Shown here one piece after another: positions 1,910 to 19,453 of a stretch of 24,468 nt of DNA. Origin of the DNA: a virus. Where the stretch lies: UHGV virus genome UHGV-0060065. One strand, written 5' to 3'. Under the pieces are notes generated by a model. That model ran no database searches, had not been told where the DNA came from, and saw nothing but the letters and a program-made list of their open reading frames with translations. Both the position numbers and the translations under genes were made by a program. Positions within the stretch are counted from its first letter, which is position 1. Each line of letters starts with the position of its first letter.

Positions 1910-2335
1910 ATGCAAGAAAGCACTCAAAACGCGCCTGAGTCACTTTGCGGAACACGATGCGATCACCTGTCAGAAATGCCAGAAGGTGAGCATCAAAAAA
2001 CAGGACGCAAAGCACGTGAACGTGAAGAAATTCGACTTTCAGAAAATCCCTCGCATCTCCTGTCAAAAGAAGGATTTGCGATGTATATCGGAAAGACCGT
2101 TGATGCCATCGTAAGCATGGCAAAAGCAGGAAAGCTACCTGCGGTGTATATGGCGGACCCTCTCAAGCCAGGCGGAAACGCTGAACTCTACATCAACAGA
2201 AAAGCGTGGGATGAAGCATGCGATCGCCTCATCGAAAACGCACCTCAGGAATGGCACGACTGGGAAAACCGTCTGTTTTTGTTTAAGCCAACAAGTGGCA
2301 GACGAAACAGAAATATCAGCGGTAAAGCAGCATAA
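1910..2335 (+). CDS. cox: Cox/Apl-like excisionase and lytic-switch regulator
   Basis: A strong RBS (GCGGAGGA) precedes the ATG at 1910. The C-terminal 85 aa (from the internal ATG at 2081, MYIGKTVDAIVSMAKAGKLPAVYMADP...) align with remembered P2 Cox (LIGKSTGAVRRMIDKGKLPVIDMTDP). It is the first gene rightward of the switch. The true start (1910, 1976 or 2081) is uncertain. Confidence 0.7.
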   Translation: MQESTQNAPESLCGTRCDHLSEMPEGEHQKTGRKAREREEIRLSENPSHLLSKEGFAMYIGKTVDAIVSMAKAGKLPAVYMADPLKPGGNAELYINRKAWDEACDRLIENAPQEWHDWENRLFLFKPTSGRRNRNISGKAA

Positions 2336-2372
2336 CTCAAACCATTATTCATTTTAGGCGGAGTATTTTGAT

Positions 2373-2723
2373 ATGAAGGAACGTCGCAATTCTTCACAGC
2401 AGCGCTTCCGCAACGGGGCGGAACGCCATGCTAACCGTTTCGCTACCAGTGCATCACGTAGCAACTCTCGCTACAGCCTGAGCGAAACACACGCAACGCC
2501 GGATGGCTACCCAGTAAAACAAATCGGCGAGCACGCCTGGTTGATTGAGAAAGCTGGAATCGTGGTCCACAAATGCCCACGCAATCCGTTTACCGGAAAC
2601 CGCATTTTTGCACTGAGCAGCGGCGACAATCAGTTCGGGCAGGATTTCACATTATACGAAGCACTTCGCACGGTTGATCGTCTGCTTCGCGGACAAAGTT
2701 TTATTAAACAGGTTGATTTATAA
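2373..2723 (+). CDS. Hypothetical early-operon protein (116 aa), basic N-terminus
   Basis: ORF with an RBS (GGCGGAG) in the rightward early operon. No family was recognised. Confidence 0.55.
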   Translation: MKERRNSSQQRFRNGAERHANRFATSASRSNSRYSLSETHATPDGYPVKQIGEHAWLIEKAGIVVHKCPRNPFTGNRIFALSSGDNQFGQDFTLYEALRTVDRLLRGQSFIKQVDL

Positions 2724-2733
2724 CAGGTGATTT

Positions 2734-3012
2734 ATGACCAAAGAGTATGCACAAGGTGTATTTATCCGTTTTATTGATTTTCGCGGTGAACTGTTATTAC
2801 GTGCATCAGCTATTGATGCTGTAGCCCAGGCAGAAAAAAAAGCAGTTACTCACGTTTATGCGAACAACGCACAACTGATCGTGGAGCTTCCGTACCAGAC
2901 CGTTCGCGAAGCCATTAACGAAGCTGAAAAAGCGCGCCAAGCTAATGGCGATGAACCCTATATCGAAATTATTTGTATGGATTCAGAAGCTGAAATTAAG
3001 AAAGCAGATTAA
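2734..3012 (+). CDS. Hypothetical early-operon protein (92 aa)
   Basis: ORF with an AGGTGA RBS, tightly packed after the previous gene. No family was recognised. Confidence 0.55.
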   Translation: MTKEYAQGVFIRFIDFRGELLLRASAIDAVAQAEKKAVTHVYANNAQLIVELPYQTVREAINEAEKARQANGDEPYIEIICMDSEAEIKKAD

Positions 3013-3020
3013 AGGGCGTT

Positions 3021-3266
3021 GTGATGGGCAAAGAATATAAAACTCTCATTAACAAAGCACTTGAGCGTTTTTATTTTCGCTTAAGCGCATCAGGCGCTCA
3101 TGCTGAACGTGCAGCCCGTGACTCATTGACCAGGGCAATCCGGAGTCTGTATGACGTGGCTTTTTACGCTGATGATCTGGATGCACTTAACGAACTTTCC
3201 GAGCTGATCTGTGCCGCAGAATGCGGGGAACATATTGAACCGTATAAGCTGGGGAATATTGCATGA
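3021..3266 (+). CDS. Hypothetical early-operon protein (81 aa)
   Basis: ORF with an RBS, co-directional and tightly packed. No family was recognised. Confidence 0.55.
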   Translation: MMGKEYKTLINKALERFYFRLSASGAHAERAARDSLTRAIRSLYDVAFYADDLDALNELSELICAAECGEHIEPYKLGNIA

Positions 3267-3376
3267 GTATATTTATCTCATGGCTTGTTCTGATTATTTC
3301 GGTGGCCTGCGCCATTGGGATTATGCGAATTATTCATTCAGTAAAAAAGATTGAACGCTTTTTCACTGGCGAATAA
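3263..3376 (+). CDS. Putative small single-pass membrane peptide (37 aa: MSIFISWLVLIISVACAIGIMRIIHSVKKIERFFTGE)
   Basis: The ATG overlaps the stop of the upstream gene (ATGA coupling). It has one hydrophobic helix followed by a basic tail. It is absent from the ORF track because it is short. Confidence 0.35.
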   Translation: MSIFISWLVLIISVACAIGIMRIIHSVKKIERFFTGE

Positions 3377-3462
3377 CAGAGCAAATAAAACCACAGGTTA
3401 AATAAGAAAATGTAAAAACAATCCGCATTCGCGGAGGTATTCGCACACGCCAAGGAGGCGCA

Positions 3463-3666
3463 ATGGCAATTAAGCGATTTACCGTCGTTCGTTTCACTTC
3501 CAGAGGACGTGAATACGAAGTTGACGAACGGCTGATTAAAACGCTCGACCGTCACCGTTCGCAACCTGACGCGCATCACATTTATCTCACTGACGACACT
3601 TACTTCTGCGCCACCAACGTGGTGCAGGTGAATCTTATCAGACAGGTACAGGAGTCACGCAGATGA
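3463..3666 (+). CDS. Hypothetical early-operon protein (67 aa)
   Basis: A strong RBS (AAGGAGG) lies 6-7 nt upstream of the ATG. The stop overlaps the next start. Confidence 0.6.
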   Translation: MAIKRFTVVRFTSRGREYEVDERLIKTLDRHRSQPDAHHIYLTDDTYFCATNVVQVNLIRQVQESRR

Positions 3667-3908
3667 CCATTCTGGACTACATCGCCGCCAATCCGGGTTG
3701 TAGCGGTGGAGAAATCGCCGCAGCACTGAATACCCCAACCACAGCCATTAATGCGGAGTTACGCCGACTCTGGCGCAGCGGTTCAGTCATAAGAAAAGAG
3801 CGCAAAACAGGCGGTCGCTTTTCTTACCAGATAAACCCGATGCCGTTCGGGTGCGGCAATCCACTTACCAACACGTTTAACCAGCTACTGAAGGAAGCCA
3901 GAGCATGA
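3663..3908 (+). CDS. Putative winged-helix DNA-binding protein (81 aa)
   Basis: Overlapping start/stop coupling. The sequence (ILDYIAANPGCSGGEIAAALNTPTTAINAELRRLWRSGSVIRKER) looks like a winged HTH. This is inference only. Confidence 0.5.
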   Translation: MTILDYIAANPGCSGGEIAAALNTPTTAINAELRRLWRSGSVIRKERKTGGRFSYQINPMPFGCGNPLTNTFNQLLKEARA

Positions 3909-4219
3909 GCGCCATCAACCACCAGGAATTACGCGAACTGGCGACTGACCTGCAACGAATGGCAACGCCTCAAAAATTACTGGCGTTTCGCGCAATGCTC
4001 TCGCCGTCTGCTGTGCTGGCGCTGCTGGATGAGCTGGAGCACGCCAGAACCATGGCTCCAGCCATTCGCCTGACGCTCCATCATGAAATCAAGGATTTCT
4101 GCGCGACGCTGGAGTCACCAGGCGAACCAGAAACGCCGGAAGCAATGCAACAAGTGCTGCTGCAACGCATCGACAACGTTTTCGATTTTTTCCTTAACCA
4201 GCAAGGGACCACAGCATGA
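3905..4219 (+). CDS. Hypothetical early-operon protein (104 aa), acidic/helical
   Basis: Translationally coupled ORF. No family was recognised. Confidence 0.55.
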   Translation: MSAINHQELRELATDLQRMATPQKLLAFRAMLSPSAVLALLDELEHARTMAPAIRLTLHHEIKDFCATLESPGEPETPEAMQQVLLQRIDNVFDFFLNQQGTTA

Positions 4220-4419
4220 ACAAAAAGACCTGGTTTCGCGCATACATGTGGGCGCTGGTATGCGTCATCGTCTCTCTCATTCTGTATGCAGGACTACTCC
4301 CCCGAATGATTTCATCAGACAGCTCCTTCCTGGTATTGCTGGGCATTTTCATTGCCATGCTGTACCCGGCAGGCGTTGTTCGCCTTTTCAGTAAGTACAT
4401 CAAGGAAATCAAACAATGA
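4216..4419 (+). CDS. Small two-helix inner-membrane protein (67 aa), likely partner of the downstream SPFH protein
   Basis: Two hydrophobic segments (WALVCVIVSLILYAGLL and FLVLLGIFIAMLYPAGVV). ATGA overlap with the upstream gene and with the SPFH gene start. Confidence 0.6.
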   Translation: MNKKTWFRAYMWALVCVIVSLILYAGLLPRMISSDSSFLVLLGIFIAMLYPAGVVRLFSKYIKEIKQ

Positions 4420-5246
4420 AGAAATTCAAACTCTTTCAGATTCTCCCGCTTTTTGCCGCCATCCTGCTGGTTGGCTGCGATCGCGTTGAGCCAGGTAATG
4501 TGGGCATCAAAGTCAACAAGCTGGGCGACGACAAAGGCGTTGGCGAAGTGGTTGGCGTTGGCCGCTACTGGACTGGCTGGAATACAGAGGTTTACATCTT
4601 CCCGACCTTCAAACAAATGAAGACCTACGATGAGCCGTTCAGCTTCCAGATGAGTGACGGCACAACCATCGGCTATCACATCGGCGTGGCTTACAAGGTT
4701 GATCCATCCAAAGTTACCACAGTGTTTCAGACCTACCGCAAAGGCGTGGATGACATTACCGACACTGACCTGCGCCAGAAGATCGCCGATGCACTCAACC
4801 GACTGGCCAGCAAAATGACCACCGATAAGTTTATCGACGGTGGTAAGTCTGAACTGCTGGATTCAGCACTTAAAGATATTCAGGAAGAGATGACCCCCAT
4901 CGGCATTCAGGTCATGAGCCTCTCTTATGTCGGTAAACCGGAATATCCGCCAACCGTTATCGACAGCATTAACGCCAAAGTCACGGCAAACCAGAAAACC
5001 CTGCAACGCGAACAGGAAGTCAAGCAACGCGAAGCTGAAGCCAACATGTTGCGCGCAGAAGCTGCCGGACAGGCTGATGCCATTCGCACAAAAGCCCAGG
5101 CTGAAGCTGACGCCATTCGTTTACGCGGTGAAGCTCTGCGCCAGAATCCCGGCGTTATGGAGCTGGAAGCAATCAACAAATGGAACGGCACGCTGCCGCA
5201 ATACATGACCAGCAATACTGCTGTTCCGTTTGTTCCGGTGAAGTAA
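4416..5246 (+). CDS. SPFH/band-7 (stomatin-prohibitin-flotillin-HflK/C) family lipoprotein
   Basis: Signal peptide with lipobox (AILLVGC). The body resembles a band-7 domain, and the C-terminus is an Ala/Glu/Arg-rich coiled coil (QREQEVKQREAEANMLRAEAAGQADAIRTKAQAEADAIRLRGEALRQ) typical of SPFH proteins. Confidence 0.75.
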   Translation: MKKFKLFQILPLFAAILLVGCDRVEPGNVGIKVNKLGDDKGVGEVVGVGRYWTGWNTEVYIFPTFKQMKTYDEPFSFQMSDGTTIGYHIGVAYKVDPSKVTTVFQTYRKGVDDITDTDLRQKIADALNRLASKMTTDKFIDGGKSELLDSALKDIQEEMTPIGIQVMSLSYVGKPEYPPTVIDSINAKVTANQKTLQREQEVKQREAEANMLRAEAAGQADAIRTKAQAEADAIRLRGEALRQNPGVMELEAINKWNGTLPQYMTSNTAVPFVPVK

Positions 5247-5413
5247 TTAAACCCGGCCAGTGAAAACCGCTGGCCGGAGCAGTATCAGGATTTTTTAGTA
5301 TGTCGTTCTCACAAAAAAACCGCTTGCCATGCCGCAATCAGTCAGGTTACATTTCCGCTGCACCTCATAAAACGGGTGCCGGGATTTCCACCCCGCTGAC
5401 AACTACAGCGCAC

Positions 5414-5434
5414 AACCGCGCCAGCGGTTTTTTT
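5414..5434 (+). terminator. Putative intrinsic terminator (AACCGC-GCCA-GCGGTT followed by a T-run)
   Basis: 6-bp GC-rich stem with a 4-nt loop followed by about 7 T, roughly 170 nt downstream of the SPFH gene. A second hairpin (CCGGCCAG...CTGGCCGG, about 5253-5277) lies directly after the SPFH stop. Confidence 0.4.
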
Positions 5435-5613
5435 GTGCGTACTGTATCGCCACGTCTTTTTCGCACACGAATTATGGTGGGGCGTACGGGGCCGACTTCG
5501 GTCGGGCCGGGTTCTGTAGTTGCCGGTTGTGGAAACCCTGTACGTCTCACCACCCCGAGTTTTCCACCTCTGGATGGTGAGTTTTCAAAACTTGCAACTA
5601 CAGAGGCCACACC

Positions 5614-5844
5614 ATGGCAAACCGCAAACAGCACCGCGCTATCGCGGAGCGTCGTCACATCCAGACTGAAATCAACCGCAGACTTTTCCGCGCATCACGC
5701 GTCGCGCAAATCATGCACATCAATATGCTGCATGAGCGCAGCCACGCACTATCAAACATCTATTCCGCCGCTGTTTTCAGCTATCTGGCGGATGATCTGC
5801 ACGAGCTTCAACAGCTCATCCAGCAGCAAAACAAACTCCATTAA
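5614..5844 (+). CDS. Hypothetical small basic protein (76 aa)
   Basis: ORF with a weak RBS, co-directional and immediately upstream of the A-proximal gene. Coding status is uncertain. Confidence 0.4.
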   Translation: MANRKQHRAIAERRHIQTEINRRLFRASRVAQIMHINMLHERSHALSNIYSAAVFSYLADDLHELQQLIQQQNKLH

Positions 5845-5916
5845 TTCCTGTTCCGGGCCTTTCCTGCACCTTGCGGCGGGAGGCCTTCGCACATCTGTAA
5901 CAAGAGGATTGCCGCA

Positions 5917-6282
5917 ATGATTCTCGCCAACGACTTTCTTGAATACCTGCTCAACACAGAACGTGATCTTGCCGCTCGCGTGCGTGAACGTTATGACATG
6001 TACCTGAAATCCCTGCCTGTACCGCAGCTCGCTGACGGAAAGATTGTTATTGATGGTCGCTACATGATTGACAGCCACGAGGGAAATTACAGGCTTTACC
6101 GCATTGAAGGTGGCACCCCGTCCGTTATTGGCATTTACCAGCGCCCATCCTCTTCAATCGTCGATGTGATTGCCGACAGCATCCGCATCACACATCGCCA
6201 TGCCGACACAGAAGACACCGTGCTGGAAATTCAGCGGCTGGCTACAGTCTGCCGCGACACCCTGAATGGCATGACGAAGTAA
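5917..6282 (+). CDS. Hypothetical protein (121 aa) directly upstream of replication gene A
   Basis: ORF ending 6 nt before the A start. No family was recognised. Confidence 0.55.
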   Translation: MILANDFLEYLLNTERDLAARVRERYDMYLKSLPVPQLADGKIVIDGRYMIDSHEGNYRLYRIEGGTPSVIGIYQRPSSSIVDVIADSIRITHRHADTEDTVLEIQRLATVCRDTLNGMTK

Positions 6283-6288
6283 ATCACT

Positions 6289-9111
6289 ATGACGGCAGAG
6301 TACATCAGGGACTGGCAACAACCGCGCCACGCAGTGGGGCGTGAAGGAACGGGGATCCCCGCTCCTGAATCCGCGCTTTCCTCCTGGCTGGATGCCTACC
6401 GGGCAGAGAACGAGCGCCGCCAGGAAATGGCTGATGCGGCGTTCTCCGCCACGCCGCTGGGCAACCTGATTAATAAAAGCCTGGACGCACAGGAAAAACA
6501 GGACAAAACCATCACACTGGCAGGAGACGCCAGAAAACAGGCACGCGGCGCGGTGGATGAAGCCATGGCCTCGCTGCGCCTGCTGCCGTCCTATCTGCGC
6601 GATCCGCTTATTCGCCACCTCTCCTTCCTTCGCAAAAAACAGGAAGCCGATCGCCGGAAAGGCAAAAAGAGCTGGCAGGCGGAACGCTATGCACGCGGAA
6701 CCCTGCGCAAAATATTCGAACGTCTGGATCGCACTGACGGACGCTGGCTGACACCGGGTTATCGCTCCCTTGCCGGACGCGAACGCCTGGACGATTTGCT
6801 TTACCTGCCGCAGCTCAACAAACACCAGATACAGACGCTGGCCACCATGACGGCAGCGATGTTCAGCAGCACCTTCGAAAAACTCTGCGATGGCTTTGGC
6901 GCGACTGATGGCGAACTGACCATGGATGTAACGCTGAAGGCGTATCAGATGCTGGCCCGCATGGCGTTACACCTGCACGCCATGCCTCCACATTATGACG
7001 CACTGACAACAGACAAAGACCGGAGGAACGAACCGGACACAGAGCTGCTGCCGGGCGCAATCCTTCGCCTGACCTGTGCGGAATGGTGGAAACGCAAACT
7101 GTGGCTGTTACGTTGCGAGTGGAGAGAAGAACAACTCCGCGCCGCCTGTCTGGTTTCCAGAAAAACATCGCCCTATCTGAGCCAGGACGCGTTAAGCGAG
7201 TTTCGCGCACAGCGCGAGAAAACACGCGATTTCCTGAAAAGTTTCATGCTGGAAAACGAAGACGGGTTCACGATTGATCTCGAGACAGTGTATTACGCGG
7301 GAGTAAGTAACCCGGTTCACCGTAAGGCAGAAATGATGGCCACCATGAAGGGACTGGAACTTCTGGCCGAAGCCCGTGGCGACAGAGCGGTGTTTCTGAC
7401 TGTCACCTGCCCGTCAAAATACCACGCAACAACGGAGAACGGTCATCCGAACCCCAAATGGAACGGGGCCACCATGCGCGACTCCAGCGATTACCTGGTT
7501 AACACGTTTTTTGCGGCGGTCCGCAAAAAACTGAACCGCGACGGCCTGCGCTGGTATGGCATCCGCACGGTGGAGCCTCACCATGACGGCACCGTGCACT
7601 GGCATATGATGGTCTTTGCTCATCCGGAAGAAATCGACAGCATCGTGGCCATCACCCGCGATATTGCCATTCAGGAAGACCGCCACGAGCTGGGCAATGA
7701 TATTACTCCGCGCTTTAAGGTGGAGTATGTCGACGGCTCAAAAGGCACACCAACCAGCTATATCGCGACCTACATCGGAAAAAACCTGGACAGCCGCGCC
7801 GTGGATGGCATCGACCCGAAAACGGGCAAGCCACGCGTTGACCACGAAACCGGAAAATCAATGGCCGAGAGCGTGGAGCGCGCCATCGGCTGGGCGCGTC
7901 TTCACCGGGTCCGCCAGTTCCAGTTCTTTGGCATCCCCTCCCGTCAGGTATGGCGTGAACTCCGCCGCCTTGCCAGCCAGATGGCACGCAACCCGGAAGG
8001 CCCGCAACGGCTGAAGGATGATGCAATGGATGCGGTACTCGCTGCCGCTGATGCCGGGTGTTTTGCCACCTACATTGAAAAACAGGGTGGCGTACTTGTT
8101 CCACGCAAGGACTACCTGATTCGCACAGCCTACGACCTCGCAGATGAGCTGAACGATTACGGCGAACAGAGTGTACAGATTTACGGGATCTGGTCGCCAC
8201 TCATCGGGGAATCCTCCCGTGTGTGCACGCACCCGGATAACTGGAAGCTGGTAAGACGTAAACCGGAAGCGGAAGACAGCACCCACGAAAATGGTTTTGA
8301 CCTTCAGGGCGGCCCTGCCGCCCCTTGGACTCGTGGCAATAACTGTCCCCGTGTACAGGAAACGGACAACAACGGGACAGAACAGCCGGAAGAACGGCCA
8401 GCACCGTGGCCGCAGCTCCCTGACGGCGTTGAAGTGAACGAATGGATGCGCTCACTGAAACGGCACGAACGCCGGGCGCTGATGCGTTCGCTTCGTGACA
8501 AACAGGCAAAAAACAGCAGCGATGAAATGCAGAGCTGGACACAGAGCCGCAAACAGCAGCGGCCTTTGCCTGATAACCACGAATTACTCGCTAAAGAATG
8601 GCGGGAGTCTGCCGAATCTCTCGGCCTGCATATCGGTGAACAGCAGATGCAGCACCTGTTACGGGGCGGCAGCCTGTACGTTGACGGCAGCATCATTGCA
8701 CCGCAGGGGTTTGAAATTGTACGCAAACCGGATACCCGACCGGACAGCCGGATCACGCAGCTCTGGCAGCGCCTGAGCCGTAACCACGGCGTAAGCAGCA
8801 CGGAGATCCGCCATAACCCGGTCGCAAGCTATCTGGAACAGCTGGGGGCATCAGACCCCGAAGCCGCCGCACGCCTGGCATCCACACTTCAGCAAGACCA
8901 GAACACCATGAAAACACCCGTTACCGTGCTTTCTGACATGCTGCGTGCCATCCGCGACGCAGAGCACGCACAGAGAATCAGTGAAACCACTGAACGCGCC
9001 CGCCGCAAAGCAGACCTGCTGCGGGGTGGCCTGACCATTGGAAACAAAAAACAGACAGAAACGGGATTCACAAATCCCGTAAATGAGCAAAAAACGCGCC
9101 GCGATATATGA
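6289..9111 (+). CDS. A: Rolling-circle replication initiator (P2 gpA-like HUH endonuclease), 940 aa
   Basis: HUH motif (GTVHWHMMVFAH) and paired catalytic tyrosines (TSYIATYIGKN) are present, and the position matches P2 gene A. It is longer than I recall P2 A to be (about 760 aa), with a long C-terminal extension. Confidence 0.88.
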   Translation: MTAEYIRDWQQPRHAVGREGTGIPAPESALSSWLDAYRAENERRQEMADAAFSATPLGNLINKSLDAQEKQDKTITLAGDARKQARGAVDEAMASLRLLPSYLRDPLIRHLSFLRKKQEADRRKGKKSWQAERYARGTLRKIFERLDRTDGRWLTPGYRSLAGRERLDDLLYLPQLNKHQIQTLATMTAAMFSSTFEKLCDGFGATDGELTMDVTLKAYQMLARMALHLHAMPPHYDALTTDKDRRNEPDTELLPGAILRLTCAEWWKRKLWLLRCEWREEQLRAACLVSRKTSPYLSQDALSEFRAQREKTRDFLKSFMLENEDGFTIDLETVYYAGVSNPVHRKAEMMATMKGLELLAEARGDRAVFLTVTCPSKYHATTENGHPNPKWNGATMRDSSDYLVNTFFAAVRKKLNRDGLRWYGIRTVEPHHDGTVHWHMMVFAHPEEIDSIVAITRDIAIQEDRHELGNDITPRFKVEYVDGSKGTPTSYIATYIGKNLDSRAVDGIDPKTGKPRVDHETGKSMAESVERAIGWARLHRVRQFQFFGIPSRQVWRELRRLASQMARNPEGPQRLKDDAMDAVLAAADAGCFATYIEKQGGVLVPRKDYLIRTAYDLADELNDYGEQSVQIYGIWSPLIGESSRVCTHPDNWKLVRRKPEAEDSTHENGFDLQGGPAAPWTRGNNCPRVQETDNNGTEQPEERPAPWPQLPDGVEVNEWMRSLKRHERRALMRSLRDKQAKNSSDEMQSWTQSRKQQRPLPDNHELLAKEWRESAESLGLHIGEQQMQHLLRGGSLYVDGSIIAPQGFEIVRKPDTRPDSRITQLWQRLSRNHGVSSTEIRHNPVASYLEQLGASDPEAAARLASTLQQDQNTMKTPVTVLSDMLRAIRDAEHAQRISETTERARRKADLLRGGLTIGNKKQTETGFTNPVNEQKTRRDI

Positions 9112-9187: not shown

Positions 9188-10147
9188 ATGAAAATTTGTA
9201 TCGACGACGGCTCCACCAACATCAAGCTGGCATGGACTGAGAACGGCGAACGCCGCAACGCCATCAGCCCGAACAGCTTCAAGTCGGAATGGTCTGCGCC
9301 GTTCGGTGGCACGCAGCCCGCGAACTACATGCTTGATGGCGTGCGCTATGGTTTTGATCCGGTCAGCGATCGCTTTGTCCAGACGACCGACACGCAATAC
9401 CAGTACAGCGATGTGAATGTCATTGCCATTCATCACGCGCTGGTCAAATCAGGCATCACGCCACAGGAGGTGGATGTGGTTGTCACCCTGCCACTGAGCG
9501 AGTATTTCGACACAAACGCACAGCCGGACATGGCCAACATCAACCGCAAAAAAGCGAACGTTATGCGTCCGGTGGAGTACCAGAACGGCGAAGCATTCAC
9601 TATCCGTAACGTGCGGGTTATGCCTGAATCCATTCCGGCTGGCTTTAAGGCACTGGCTGACATGAGTCCGTTTGAATCCCTGCTGATTGTGGATTTGGGC
9701 GGAACCACGCTGGATGTGGCAAAGGTTCAGGGACAACTGGCAGGTATCAGCCAGGTGTTTTGCGATCCACACGTAGGCGTTTCCCTGATGGCCGATGCCG
9801 TACTGTCGGTGATGGCCACTAACGGTATGCGTACCAGTCACCACATCGCCAACACCATTATCGAACATCGCCATGATGAAGCCTGGCTGCGCCAGCACAT
9901 CCACAATGGCGCGCATTACGACAGCCTGATGGCGGTTATTCGTGAAAAGGAAGAGACACTGAAACAACGCGTGATCCGCGCGCTGGCGGTTTTTTCGGGT
10001 TACGGGCGGGTGATGGTTGTAGGTGGAGGAGCAGAGATTGTGGCACCCGCTATCCGCGAAGCCTGCGGAGTTAATGCGACTTTCATCGCGGACGGGGTGC
10101 CACAGTTTGCTCTGGTTAATGGGCTGTACGCAATGGACAAGGAGTAA
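9188..10147 (+). CDS. parM: Actin-like segregation ATPase ParM/StbA family
   Basis: The translation matches remembered plasmid R1 ParM along its whole length (MKICIDDGSTNIKLAW, ISPNSFK, QYSDVNV, HHAL, VMPESIPAG, LLIVDLGGTTLD, VMVVGGGAE, LVNGLYAM). RBS AAGGAAAAG. Confidence 0.85.
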   Translation: MKICIDDGSTNIKLAWTENGERRNAISPNSFKSEWSAPFGGTQPANYMLDGVRYGFDPVSDRFVQTTDTQYQYSDVNVIAIHHALVKSGITPQEVDVVVTLPLSEYFDTNAQPDMANINRKKANVMRPVEYQNGEAFTIRNVRVMPESIPAGFKALADMSPFESLLIVDLGGTTLDVAKVQGQLAGISQVFCDPHVGVSLMADAVLSVMATNGMRTSHHIANTIIEHRHDEAWLRQHIHNGAHYDSLMAVIREKEETLKQRVIRALAVFSGYGRVMVVGGGAEIVAPAIREACGVNATFIADGVPQFALVNGLYAMDKE

Positions 10148-10151
10148 ACCA

Positions 10152-10463
10152 ATGACGACACCAACCAGACGGATAAGTTTCTATCTGAAGCCCGCCGCCG
10201 TCAAGAACGAAGGCGAAGCATGCGCCTGGCTGGACAGCCTTACACCAGAAGCCCGCAAAAACGGCCAACGTGTGGCTTTTCTGGCCGGGCTGGCACTTCT
10301 GAAAATGAATCCGGCAGAGGCTTACCGACTGGCTGCATGGGCTGACGATGAGGCGTTGTCGGTGACACAAACCAGGACAGAACGCCCCGCGTCACAGCCA
10401 GTATCAACCGCACAGATAACCAGTCAGATGGCCGGAAATATCCGGGCGTTATTTCCCGAATAA
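10152..10463 (+). CDS. parR: ParR/StbB-like ribbon-helix-helix centromere-binding protein (103 aa)
   Basis: An AAGGAG RBS sits 7 nt upstream of the ATG at 10152, which lies 5 nt after the parM stop. The N-terminus (RRISFYLKP...LDSLTPEARKNGQRVAFLAGLALL) and C-terminus (NIRALFPE) resemble R1 ParR. The ORF-track entry 10023..10463 includes a spurious N-terminal extension overlapping parM. Confidence 0.6.
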   Translation: MTTPTRRISFYLKPAAVKNEGEACAWLDSLTPEARKNGQRVAFLAGLALLKMNPAEAYRLAAWADDEALSVTQTRTERPASQPVSTAQITSQMAGNIRALFPE

Positions 10464-18055: not shown

Positions 18056-18856
18056 ATGATTACTCCTGCACAGCAACACTGGCAGAACGTGATGGCACAG
18101 CGCGCAGGCCGGGCGAATGAAGGCGTGGACCACGCCGCGCGTACCGCGCATGAAGAGGTGCTGTATCGTCTGCGTCTGGCACAGGCCCGGCTTAAGGGCG
18201 TACAGGCCAGAAGCGCGAAAGCCGCCATCAAAAAAGAGTTGTTGCCGGACTTTTCCGGCTGGATTGAGGGAACGCTGGAGGCTGAGGGCGGGCAGCAGGA
18301 TGAAGTGATTGCCACGCTGATGGTGTGGGCGATTGACTGCGGCGATCTTCCGCTGGCGCTGCGTATTGGTGCATATGTGGTCCGTCACAACCTCATCATG
18401 CCGGATAACTTTGGACGTACTGCTGCCACGGTACTGACCGAAGAAATCTGTAATCCGGTACTGACGCAGGCCGGGACGGATGCCGACGCGGATTTGTCCG
18501 CCTTTATCGAACCACTGGACACCCTCCGGGAGATTGTCACCGACCAGGACATGCCGGACGAAGTGCGCGCCAAATTATGCAAAGCGTGCGCCTTTGCCCG
18601 CCGTGGCCTGACCGATGCGGACAGCATGGCCTCATCACTGAAGCTGCTGCGCGAAGCGATGCACCTGAACCCGAACGCAGGTGTGAAACGCGAGATTGCA
18701 ACCCTTTCCCGCGCCCTGAAAAAAGCCGATTCCGCAGCCGCACCAGAAGATGCCAGCACACCGCAGGCGCAGGACGAAAGCAGCAAAAGTAAAAAGACAA
18801 CGCGGAAGCCTGCAACACGAAAAACCACCGCGACGCAGAAGGCGAAGCGCGGTTAA
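18056..18856 (+). CDS. M: Terminase small subunit, P2 gpM-like
   Basis: The DMPDEVRAKL motif and overall similarity match remembered P2 gpM. Basic Lys/Arg-rich C-terminus. RBS ACGGAGAG. Confidence 0.85.
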   Translation: MITPAQQHWQNVMAQRAGRANEGVDHAARTAHEEVLYRLRLAQARLKGVQARSAKAAIKKELLPDFSGWIEGTLEAEGGQQDEVIATLMVWAIDCGDLPLALRIGAYVVRHNLIMPDNFGRTAATVLTEEICNPVLTQAGTDADADLSAFIEPLDTLREIVTDQDMPDEVRAKLCKACAFARRGLTDADSMASSLKLLREAMHLNPNAGVKREIATLSRALKKADSAAAPEDASTPQAQDESSKSKKTTRKPATRKTTATQKAKRG

Positions 18857-18958
18857 CGACTGACCCCGTCAGCGGGCGGCGTGCGCGGTGTTCCGGTTTG
18901 ACTCCGTGACCGTTTACACCGCGCACCCACCGCCCGATTTTTTTCAGGAGTGAACCCC

Positions 18959-19453
18959 ATGAGTATGGTTGCCAGAACCAACCCCGGACCCGCAGAGGAC
19001 GACATCACCGATACCGATGATGGTGATACCCGTATTTCAGCGGGCGCATTCTGGCCGGATATTGTGCTGCGTGAGCTGCGTCTGGCGATACGACTGCCGG
19101 GCCGTGTGACCACCTCCCGCCTGCTGCATACCGCCACCGGGGCCGTGGCACACGTTACCCGCGAGCTGGAAGCGTGGCAGCAGGAACAACAGGCGGCTGG
19201 CCATCAGACGCTGGCCGATGTTCCGGCACCCGTAATTAACGGAGAAAGCGTCAATCTCTGGCACTGGCGCAATGCCGTTTATACCGCCACACGCGCCCTG
19301 ATTCTGGAGCGTTACCGCGATGCGGACACAACGGATAAGGGCGACCGCCGCGCGGACGCACTGGATATACAGACATCGGATTTGTGGCGCGATGTGAGCT
19401 GGGCCATCTCTGACATTCTGCGCCGCCCGCGAATCTTTGCGGAGCTGTGCTGA
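18959..19453 (+). CDS. L: Head completion/stabilisation protein, P2 gpL-like
   Basis: LADVPA...GES, ERYRD and DLWRD motifs shared with P2 gpL. Start chosen at the ATG at 18959 with an AGGAG RBS; the ORF track starts at a GTG at 18950. Confidence 0.8.
   Translation: MSMVARTNPGPAEDDITDTDDGDTRISAGAFWPDIVLRELRLAIRLPGRVTTSRLLHTATGAVAHVTRELEAWQQEQQAAGHQTLADVPAPVINGESVNLWHWRNAVYTATRALILERYRDADTTDKGDRRADALDIQTSDLWRDVSWAISDILRRPRIFAELC

Follow-up and report, generated by a model that had tools for sequence, protein, structure and literature searches.

What is a gene for an SPFH/Band-7 lipoprotein doing in the early operon of a P2-like phage, and why is it joined to a gene for a small two-helix membrane protein? 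The two genes lie in a 24,468-nucleotide stretch of virus genome UHGV-0060065, referred to below as the window, where the small membrane partner is encoded at positions 4216..4419 (+ strand, 67 amino acids) and the SPFH protein at positions 4416..5246 (+ strand, 276 amino acids). The 2.9-kb stretch around the pair is 100% identical to Escherichia phage P88 (NC_026014), a P2-like temperate phage of the Peduoviridae, genus Xuanwuvirus, and window positions equal P88 positions plus 332. Cages built from SPFH proteins (HflK/C, prohibitin, stomatin, flotillin and erlin) have recently been solved in many systems, and their role is debated. On balance we lean towards reading the P88 pair as an early-expressed mobile scaffold module that acts on a conserved component of the host inner membrane.

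Family, fold and predicted anchor of the SPFH protein

A preliminary description of the window had taken the product of 4416..5246 for an SPFH lipoprotein and had named Pfam family PF01145 as the check, and profile searches bear this out. Band_7 (PF01145) matches residues 23-209 over profile positions 2-176 of 176 with 108.4 bits against a cut-off of 23.6 (E 5.7e-31), and PHROG 200 'lipoprotein' matches with an E value of 1.8e-112. Matches this far beyond chance identify the product, as judged from its sequence, as a true SPFH/Band-7 protein.

The lipoprotein part of the claim is likewise upheld by the N-terminus, where residues 1-20 read as a lipoprotein signal peptide that ends in the lipobox LLVG-C and is followed by Asp22 (4416..4481, + strand; the Cys21 codon at 4476-4478, the codon of Asp22 in the +2 position at 4479-4481). 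In the sequence MKKFKLFQILPLFAAILLVG, followed by C-D, a canonical lipobox comes after a basic n-region and a hydrophobic core, and the general lipobox rule, [LVI][ASTVI][GAS]C after a basic n-region and an h-region, fits the reading MKKFK-LFQILPLFAAILLVG-C. The strict lipobox pattern is present in 86 of about 140 full-length representatives of the family, and further ones were matched by eye. The residues C-D-R-V-E-P-G are kept in the copies from phiP27, from Stx2a phages and from P1-like and SSU5-like elements, and an Asp follows the Cys in every enterobacterial copy. An Asp at +2 is the classical inner-membrane retention signal of E. coli (Lol-avoidance).

The fold was modelled with AlphaFold2 from an alignment of 88 diverse homologues taken from an exhaustive HMMER search, which had returned 2906 clusters (50% identity) at E <=1e-3 and 221 at E <=1e-30. 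The model has a mean predicted local distance difference test score (pLDDT) of 92.2 and consists of the alpha/beta SPFH domain proper (residues 23-209 by the Pfam envelope, 4482..5042, + strand, pLDDT 91-98), a single 65-residue helix rich in Ala, Glu and Arg (residues 179-243 according to DSSP on the model, 4950..5144, + strand), a short helix and a less ordered tail. In the model the long helix appears to correspond to the wall-forming coiled-coil helix of SPFH cages, and the family alignment shows a conserved C-terminal tail behind it, KWNGxLP...PF(V/I)xVK.

When the model was compared with the PDB by Foldseek, the top matches were all cage-forming SPFH proteins, with HflK (7vhq_E, 2.3e-14) accompanied by prohibitin, erlin, stomatin, flotillin and QmcA, and the alignments ran near full length (240-310 columns) at a probability of 1.00 and about 15-18% identity. 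Sequence matches in the PDB at E <=0.01 were restricted to HflK and a prohibitin-2 fragment; HflK was the best with E 1.2e-4, and phmmer aligned residues 115-241 of the phage protein to HflK 180-306. The NCBIfam equivalog models were nevertheless not reached, hflC giving 25.7 bits against a required 134.4 and hflK 23.5 bits against 159.4. The P88 pair also has no N-terminal transmembrane anchor of the HflK/C kind and contains a single SPFH gene instead of a K/C pair. The SPFH protein is of cage-type architecture, yet it is no HflK or HflC orthologue.

The membrane partner and its tie to the SPFH protein

The second half of the preliminary description, a two-helix membrane protein beside the SPFH protein, stood up equally well. 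Two hydrophobic transmembrane helices (TM1 at about residues 9-28, TM2 at about residues 38-58), joined by a short polar loop, take up nearly the whole 67-residue length, and the protein matches PHROG 1130 'membrane protein' (E 1.2e-22), which PHROG files in the category 'moron, auxiliary metabolic gene and host takeover'. None of five partner variants compared with Pfam reached the cut-off of any family, including NfeD, holin and Imm families. Both termini are basic (MNKKTWFR at the N-terminus and SKYIKEIKQ at the C-terminus), and the positive-inside rule predicts an N-in/C-in hairpin with its loop in the periplasm. The partner stop and the SPFH start overlap in an ATGA that is read in the sequence at 4416-4419, from which we infer that the two genes are probably translationally coupled.

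The pair recurs in other phage backbones, where a two-helix open reading frame of 62-78 amino acids comes immediately before the SPFH gene and in most cases overlaps its start. The partners of the phiP27, P1-like and SSU5-like elements share nine invariant residues with the P88 partner (Y10, Y24, L27, P29, I32, S33, V40, G43 and P51), and these cluster in the loop P29-RMISSDSS-37 (4300..4326, + strand), whose family motif is LLPxxISSxS. Between these lineages the partner has only 22-46% identity to the P88 partner, as opposed to 77-93% for the SPFH protein.

Co-occurrence of the two genes, which the preliminary description had proposed as a check, was found whichever gene the search started from. 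Among 85 phage loci a hairpin reading frame lies directly upstream of the SPFH gene in 84, and the lone exception has too little sequence before the end of its contig. A second set of 79 testable loci came from a one-genome-per-species collection and spans several phyla, with members from Enterobacterales, Xenorhabdus, Morganella, Sutterella, Dyella, Cupriavidus, Bacteroidota and Leptospira; this genome scan was seeded with a smaller alignment than the 88-sequence one, which was too diverse for the purpose. A separate two-helix reading frame is situated upstream in 66 of these loci, with the loop motif in 57, and at least three further loci of the 79 carry the hairpin fused in frame to the SPFH protein. 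Starting from two partner variants, a Band_7 gene of 275 amino acids was found overlapping the partner stop in nine of the nine places shown.

The most direct indication that the two proteins belong together comes from natural in-frame fusions, which make up 15 of about 140 full-length family clusters (50% identity). In these proteins the hairpin is followed by a basic linker, a third hydrophobic helix with a lipobox at its end, and the SPFH domain; the loop motif recurs in them, and one fused homologue models confidently with three N-terminal helices. Fusions of this kind are 'Rosetta stone' evidence, which argues for a physical partnership of hairpin and SPFH protein. With the ends of the hairpin in the cytoplasm, the third helix of the fusions would also bring the SPFH domain to the outward-facing side. 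Some family members have an uncleaved N-terminal transmembrane helix where others have a lipobox, which again speaks for an inner-membrane family whose SPFH domain faces outwards. Taken together with the PHROG match, the adjacency in 84 of 85 loci and a ratio of nonsynonymous to synonymous polymorphism (pN/pS) of 0.43, the fusions establish that the small reading frame is a real gene.

The partner is recognisable also in PVP-SE1 (gp115), KpCHEMY26 (gp28) and phiE125 (gp44), and both PVP-SE1 and KpCHEMY26 have extra small membrane reading frames around the pair. An unannotated mini-frame of 35 amino acids with a single helix is found just upstream of the hairpin gene in phiP27 (locus L002, 2628..2735) and in a Stx2a phage (L006, 2631..2738). 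In the Salmonella phage PhiSH19 (L175, 1932..2150, - strand) an unannotated two-helix reading frame of 72 amino acids overlaps the start of the Kuttervirus SPFH lipoprotein gene; its inter-helix loop is strongly basic, which suggests a topology opposite to that predicted for the P88 partner. The annotated 'superinfection exclusion protein' beside the SPFH gene of PhiSH19 was considered as a partner and rejected, as it is a soluble protein of the gp17 family and no homologue of the partner.

A mobile cassette

Comparison with the sibling Xuanwuvirus P884B11 defines a cassette of 1087 bp (4223..5309, + strand) that P884B11 lacks. Window positions 3400-4222 align to 1501-2322 of the P884B11 locus (L004) and positions 5310-6300 to 2323-3313, and since these flanks are contiguous in P884B11, the segment 4223..5309 is a clean insertion or deletion. 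An ACAAAAA microhomology is present at both junctions (4220-4226 and 5311-5317), and the composition of the cassette shows no anomaly, its G+C content of about 0.50-0.53 being close to that of the flanks. In another sibling, Citrobacter phage Shae_phiSM, this slot is taken up by an unrelated helix-turn-helix gene. Among 5426 complete E. coli genomes the P88-type backbone flanks were found in 874-1045 and the full cassette in 145, a carriage of roughly 1 in 6 P88-like prophages of E. coli. Counting all its versions, the SPFH gene is present in 714 of the 5426 genomes (13%), and 389 of its 806 places are on plasmids.

The other backbones are unrelated to P88. In Shiga toxin (Stx) 2a- and Stx2d-converting phages and in phiP27 the pair lies in the early-left region between the repressor and xis/int; in P1-like phage-plasmids it lies in the C1-controlled ban operon between tRNA genes, where it replaces plp-upl-tciABC of P1. 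Plasmids of about 110 kb, which we take as SSU5-like phage-plasmids, carry the pair beside recA and a RepB-family replication gene, and a lambdoid prophage of Klebsiella and other Enterobacteriaceae is a further carrier. The P88 cassette shows the discrete insertion by which a moron is recognised, but the simple scans found neither the promoter nor the canonical terminator of its own that a moron, as a unit expressed autonomously in the lysogen, should also have.

Two observations on these slots may be added. With tRNA genes on either side, the P1-like slot between trnT and trnI (L003, 1844-3874; in P1 itself L177, 13349-15009) is a site for variable cargo. A gene with a Tad2-like domain (Thoeris anti-defence, PF11195, E 6e-7) is located about 700 bp downstream of the pair, at about 5730-6305 of L178-L182, which are contigs of about 55-95 kb where the SPFH gene is accompanied by a 72-amino-acid partner variant.

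Selection and recombination

How strongly the SPFH protein is constrained becomes apparent when mature coding segments are compared between lineages. Against the Stx2a copy the P88 gene has a synonymous divergence (dS) of 0.43 and a ratio of nonsynonymous to synonymous substitution rates (dN/dS) of 0.058; against phiP27 the values are 0.53 and 0.038, and against the P1-like copy 1.01 and 0.008. The protein identities of up to 93% are therefore due to very strong purifying selection and not to recent transfer. Within the P88-type alleles (n=41) the partner has a pN/pS of 0.43 and the SPFH protein one of 0.02, values that come from pairwise sums which are not independent. Compared with the mature SPFH protein, both the signal peptide and the partner diverge freely. 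Such a constraint fits use of the whole surface in self-assembly, binding to a conserved host component, or both, and does not fit an arms-race protein.

The nucleotide similarity of P88 to the phiP27, Stx2a and P1-like copies starts abruptly at 4467-4473, just before the Cys codon, and ends at or near the stop codon. Synonymous polymorphism (pS) among the 41 P88-type alleles is 0.12 in the SPFH gene as against 0.03 in the adjacent partner gene, about four times higher. These patterns suggest that the segment coding for the mature SPFH protein recombines as a module of its own.

Distribution beyond temperate phages

By protein search, a homologue of the family is present in 385 of 50,697 phage records (about 0.8%), and many of these are virulent phages, of several kinds: the rV5-like PVP-SE1 with its Klebsiella and Cronobacter relatives, the N4-like KpCHEMY26, Fifi051 and Pokken, FelixO1-like Erwinia phages (among them M7), Pseudomonas Bruynogheviruses, phiCbK, Lak megaphages and jumbo phages. 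In virulent phages the gene lies among early and DNA-metabolism genes (polymerase, ligase, dUTPase, exonuclease, RNA polymerase). Dyella has the pair on its chromosome, in a setting that is syntenic from species to species, next to genes for a BlaR1-like M56 peptidase, hemerythrin, nrdAB and a DPP-IV peptidase, and no phage genes were seen near this locus; the synteny set consists of L126 and 12 other Rhodanobacteraceae loci, mostly from Dyella (L106-L148). The members in virulent phages and on the Dyella chromosome make it unlikely that the role of the pair is limited to the lysogeny decision.

Expression in P88

The preliminary description had put the pair between cox and gene A in an early operon of the P2 type, and the placement is as it had stated. 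The gene order of the window is integrase, C repressor, cox, early operon and gene A, followed by head, lysis and tail genes; cox (1910..2335) is the gene at the 5' flank of the region of the pair, and the gene A replication protein is encoded at 6289..9111 (Phage_GPA, E 1.6e-130). Its frame of reference needs one correction: the phage is P2-like, with the cox and A flanks as described, but it is P88 and not P2 itself.

Directly upstream of the partner gene is an Ead/Ea22-like reading frame (3905..4219), whose TGA stop is overlapped by the partner ATG (4216), and the 5' junction of the pair leaves no room for a promoter. A consensus promoter scan of the + strand between 3300 and 5320 found no sigma-70-like site, with the reservation that a scan this simple may miss real promoters. 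Its sole match on the + strand (5324-5353) is downstream of the pair, in front of isrK. Read most simply, the sequence makes the pair part of the Pe early transcript running from cox to A, from which we would expect silence in the lysogen and expression upon infection or induction.

Seven nucleotides past the SPFH stop, within the insert, is a ten-pair GC-rich RNA hairpin (5253..5277, + strand) with a calculated free energy of -21.1 kcal/mol (z = -3.3), a stability reached by none of 200 shuffled sequences. A terminator scan of the + strand gave no canonical intrinsic terminator after the SPFH gene, and the T-run begins 13 nucleotides downstream of the RNA hairpin.

Comparison with known systems

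The closest known relative in architecture is the HflK/HflC-FtsH complex of E. coli (PDB 7vhp, 7vhq, 7wi3, 9cz2), in which an SPFH domain, a long wall-forming helix and a C-terminal tail follow each other as in the P88 protein, and in which the SPFH domain is periplasmic at the inner membrane, as is predicted for P88. The phage protein differs from HflK in having about 17% structure-based identity to it and a predicted lipid anchor instead of an N-terminal transmembrane helix, and from HflK/C in being encoded by one SPFH gene instead of a K/C pair and in having the 67-residue hairpin partner, which HflK/C is without. In layout the pair resembles the SPFH-NfeD operons (QmcA-YbbJ, PDB 8z5g; YqiJ-YqiK; FloA-NfeD), which likewise consist of an SPFH gene with an adjoining, co-inherited small membrane partner and of which fusions exist. 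The P88 partner, however, has no NfeD/OB-fold domain, belongs to no Pfam family and is a two-helix hairpin only, and QmcA and YqiK face the cytoplasm whereas the P88 SPFH protein is predicted to be exported.

Membership of PHROG 200 and PHROG 1130 unites the pair with phiP27 L05, PVP-SE1 gp117, the 'band 7 lipoprotein' of phiCbK and phiE125 gp43, which belong to the same families. The likeness to T4 Imm/Sp, T5 Llp and Cor of phi80 and N15 is one of layout only: these are early small inner-membrane proteins and/or periplasmic lipoproteins, small and specific to phages, whereas the P88 SPFH protein is a cage-type scaffold of 276 amino acids with cellular orthologues and no sequence or profile similarity to them.

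The bare family is already annotated, as 'SPFH domain-containing protein' or 'band 7 lipoprotein', and the P88 record itself has 'putative SPFH domain protein'. A search of the literature on phage or prophage SPFH or band 7 proteins returned no functional study of the family, and what it did return was speculation, table entries and the work on PM0222 of a Pasteurella multocida prophage; the 'band 7' of the phiCbK paper proved to be a gel band and not the SPFH family. PM0222, the only prophage SPFH protein with experimental data that we found, is an HflK/C-like protein of 25-35 kDa that is present in outer-membrane vesicles and acts as an agonist of Toll-like receptors (TLR) 1/2, and its deletion attenuates virulence (PMC9872710). 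It is similar in size to the P88 protein and can be likened to it by description only. The predicted lipid anchor with periplasmic orientation, the non-NfeD hairpin and its fusions, the hopping between backbones, the presence in virulent phages and the pattern of selection appear to be absent from the searchable literature.

Proposed role and alternatives

Our preferred reading, which we think has a slightly better than even chance of being right, is that the pair is an early-expressed mobile scaffold module acting on a conserved host inner-membrane component. The SPFH protein would be exported and lipid-anchored at Cys21, and the Asp at +2 would hold it on the periplasmic face of the inner membrane, with which the transmembrane-anchored and the fused homologues agree. 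The hairpin would contact it via the short conserved periplasmic loop, and the complex would oligomerise into a ring or cage like that of HflK/C and fence off a patch of the inner membrane. In P88 the pair would be made with the early lytic operon after infection or induction and not in the quiescent lysogen; expression elsewhere is expected to be early too, because the lambdoid, P1-like and virulent copies also sit among early genes. As an auxiliary scaffold of host derivation, the complex would then have as its target either a conserved inner-membrane component or the membrane as such, and would condition the envelope for lytic development.

FtsH, a membrane quality-control protease, has the best precedent as a candidate target, since among bacterial SPFH cages HflK/C alone combines this orientation with a known client; that it is FtsH specifically we put forward by analogy as a tentative suggestion. 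Speculative to a similar degree is the broader idea that phages, temperate and virulent alike, build a periplasm-facing SPFH cage of their own early in infection and use it to enclose or exclude a host machine such as FtsH. If true, this would amount to viral takeover of membrane proteostasis or compartmentation with a hairpin subunit in place of NfeD, and the pair would give viruses their first SPFH system of defined function, with a partner architecture that is new for SPFH proteins.

Several points weigh against the scaffold-module reading. Oligomerisation, localisation, expression timing and phenotype of the pair are all predictions, and the simple scan may have missed a real promoter. In the light of Lol-avoidance studies, an Arg at +3 after the Asp may weaken inner-membrane retention. 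The partner evolves much faster than the SPFH protein, which is unusual for an obligate structural subunit, and no partner is recognisable in the distant phages Erwinia M7, PaCe and phiCbK. The RNA hairpin behind the SPFH gene could attenuate the early transcript before it reaches gene A, an odd effect for a passenger. Finally, the vesicle location of PM0222 (PMC9872710) would, if PM0222 belongs to the family, be at variance with a protein retained at the inner membrane.

Control of lysogeny via FtsH, with the phage SPFH protein mimicking or competing with HflK/C and thereby altering how fast phage regulators are turned over by FtsH and how often lysogenisation or induction occurs, is close to what the preliminary description had proposed, and authors of another phage genome (CSP3) have speculated similarly (PMC10269572). 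HflK is indeed the top structural match and the best sequence match in the PDB, and the predicted periplasm-facing topology at the inner membrane is that of HflK/C and unlike that of the cytoplasm-facing QmcA and YqiK. The family is found, however, in obligately virulent phages and at a core locus of Dyella, where no lysogeny decision is taken; the NCBIfam models for HflK and HflC stay far below their cut-offs, there is neither a transmembrane anchor nor a pair of K/C paralogues, and the C/Cox switch of P2-like phages is not known to depend on an FtsH-labile CII. With members in virulent phages and on a chromosome, the chain from FtsH through phage regulators to lysogeny loses force, and we regard this explanation as distinctly unlikely. 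Superinfection exclusion, which the preliminary description had raised beside the tuning of FtsH and the remodelling of membrane microdomains, or envelope shielding would have the pair keep secondary phages from getting their DNA in or from damaging the envelope, in the manner of T4 Imm/Sp, T5 Llp and Cor. It seems doubtful to us but is a live rival, since it accounts for an early-made small inner-membrane protein with a periplasmic lipoprotein in variable accessory slots, for their presence in virulent and temperate phages alike, as is the case for exclusion genes, and for a fast-evolving partner that PHROG files under 'moron, auxiliary metabolic gene and host takeover'. What it does not account for is the housekeeping-level purifying selection on the SPFH protein (dN/dS 0.01-0.06), which is unlike that on an arms-race protein, and the conserved chromosomal orthologues in Dyella. 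Nor did defence-gene profiles lend it a hand: PADLOC, run on the pair and its neighbours, gave no match for the SPFH protein and a 14-bit, chance-level match only for the partner, and Pfam gave no family of the Imm, Sp, Cor or SieB type.

The early position of the pair also weighs against two explanations that would have it act later or outside the cell. A lipoprotein of lysogenic conversion or virulence, which the prophage would express and which would reach the cell surface or vesicles and act on the animal host, has a possible precedent in the HflK/C-like PM0222 of Pasteurella (PMC9872710), and the cassette is over-represented among Stx-converting phages and among E. coli isolates of porcine and human origin. 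In P88, however, the pair is part of a repressed early operon and has no promoter of its own, the Asp at +2 predicts retention at the inner membrane, and the family is also present in virulent phages and environmental bacteria; in addition, any triacylated lipoprotein activates TLR1/2, which makes that assay unspecific. We find this explanation very unlikely. The same low rank goes to a function in lysis timing, with the hairpin acting like a class II holin or antiholin and the SPFH lipoprotein either resembling a spanin or corralling holins. In its size, its N-in/C-in arrangement of two helices and its charged C-terminus the partner is typical of class II holins, and a lipoprotein with a long periplasmic helix loosely resembles a spanin, but P88 has a late lysis cassette of its own at 18194..19310 (holin/antiholin, endolysin and a DUF2570 protein) while the pair belongs to the early operon, Pfam gave no match to a holin or spanin family, and the chromosomal copy in Dyella and the natural fusions point to the hairpin as a structural subunit. 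Least of all do we believe in a serine protease, although the product is so annotated in GenBank records of phiP27, Stx2a phages and others: Pfam gives Band_7 as the sole significant domain and no peptidase family, and the model consists entirely of SPFH domain and helix, which leaves the label next to no chance. In all likelihood it goes back to the former COG title 'membrane protease subunits, stomatin/prohibitin homologs', and should be dropped from these genes.

The pair has a wider interest. It is a compact viral version of an SPFH system, made of one lipoprotein of 276 amino acids and one hairpin of 67, under selection of housekeeping level and moving between unrelated backbones, and genes that many phages keep so conserved usually signal a vulnerability or a requirement of the host. 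P88 and P884B11 form a natural isogenic pair with and without the insert, in which the purpose of an SPFH cage can be tested in a system of two genes.

Neighbouring features of P88

Immediately downstream of the cassette, Rfam identifies isrK (5360-5434, + strand, 63.6 bits) and a C4 antisense RNA (5470-5557, + strand, 80.5 bits), and the reading frame that follows (5614..5844) encodes a 'derepression protein' (Pfam PF25738). The two RNAs are also present in the siblings P884B11 and Shae_phiSM and therefore belong to the backbone and not to the cassette. The isrK/C4/derepression region looks like an antirepressor control module of the P1/P7 immI type (c4-icd-ant), here inside a P2-like phage.

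Just after gene A, at about 9188..10463 (+ strand), P88 has genes for a ParM-like segregation ATPase and a partition protein. These are partition genes of the plasmid type, yet the phage is an integrating, P2-like one.

Reading frames have been annotated over the isrK and C4 RNA genes, in P88 at 5365..5553 (- strand, gp13) and in P884B11 as gp51, a 'transcriptional regulator' (L004, 2316..2933). Lying on top of the RNA genes, they are probably spurious gene calls.

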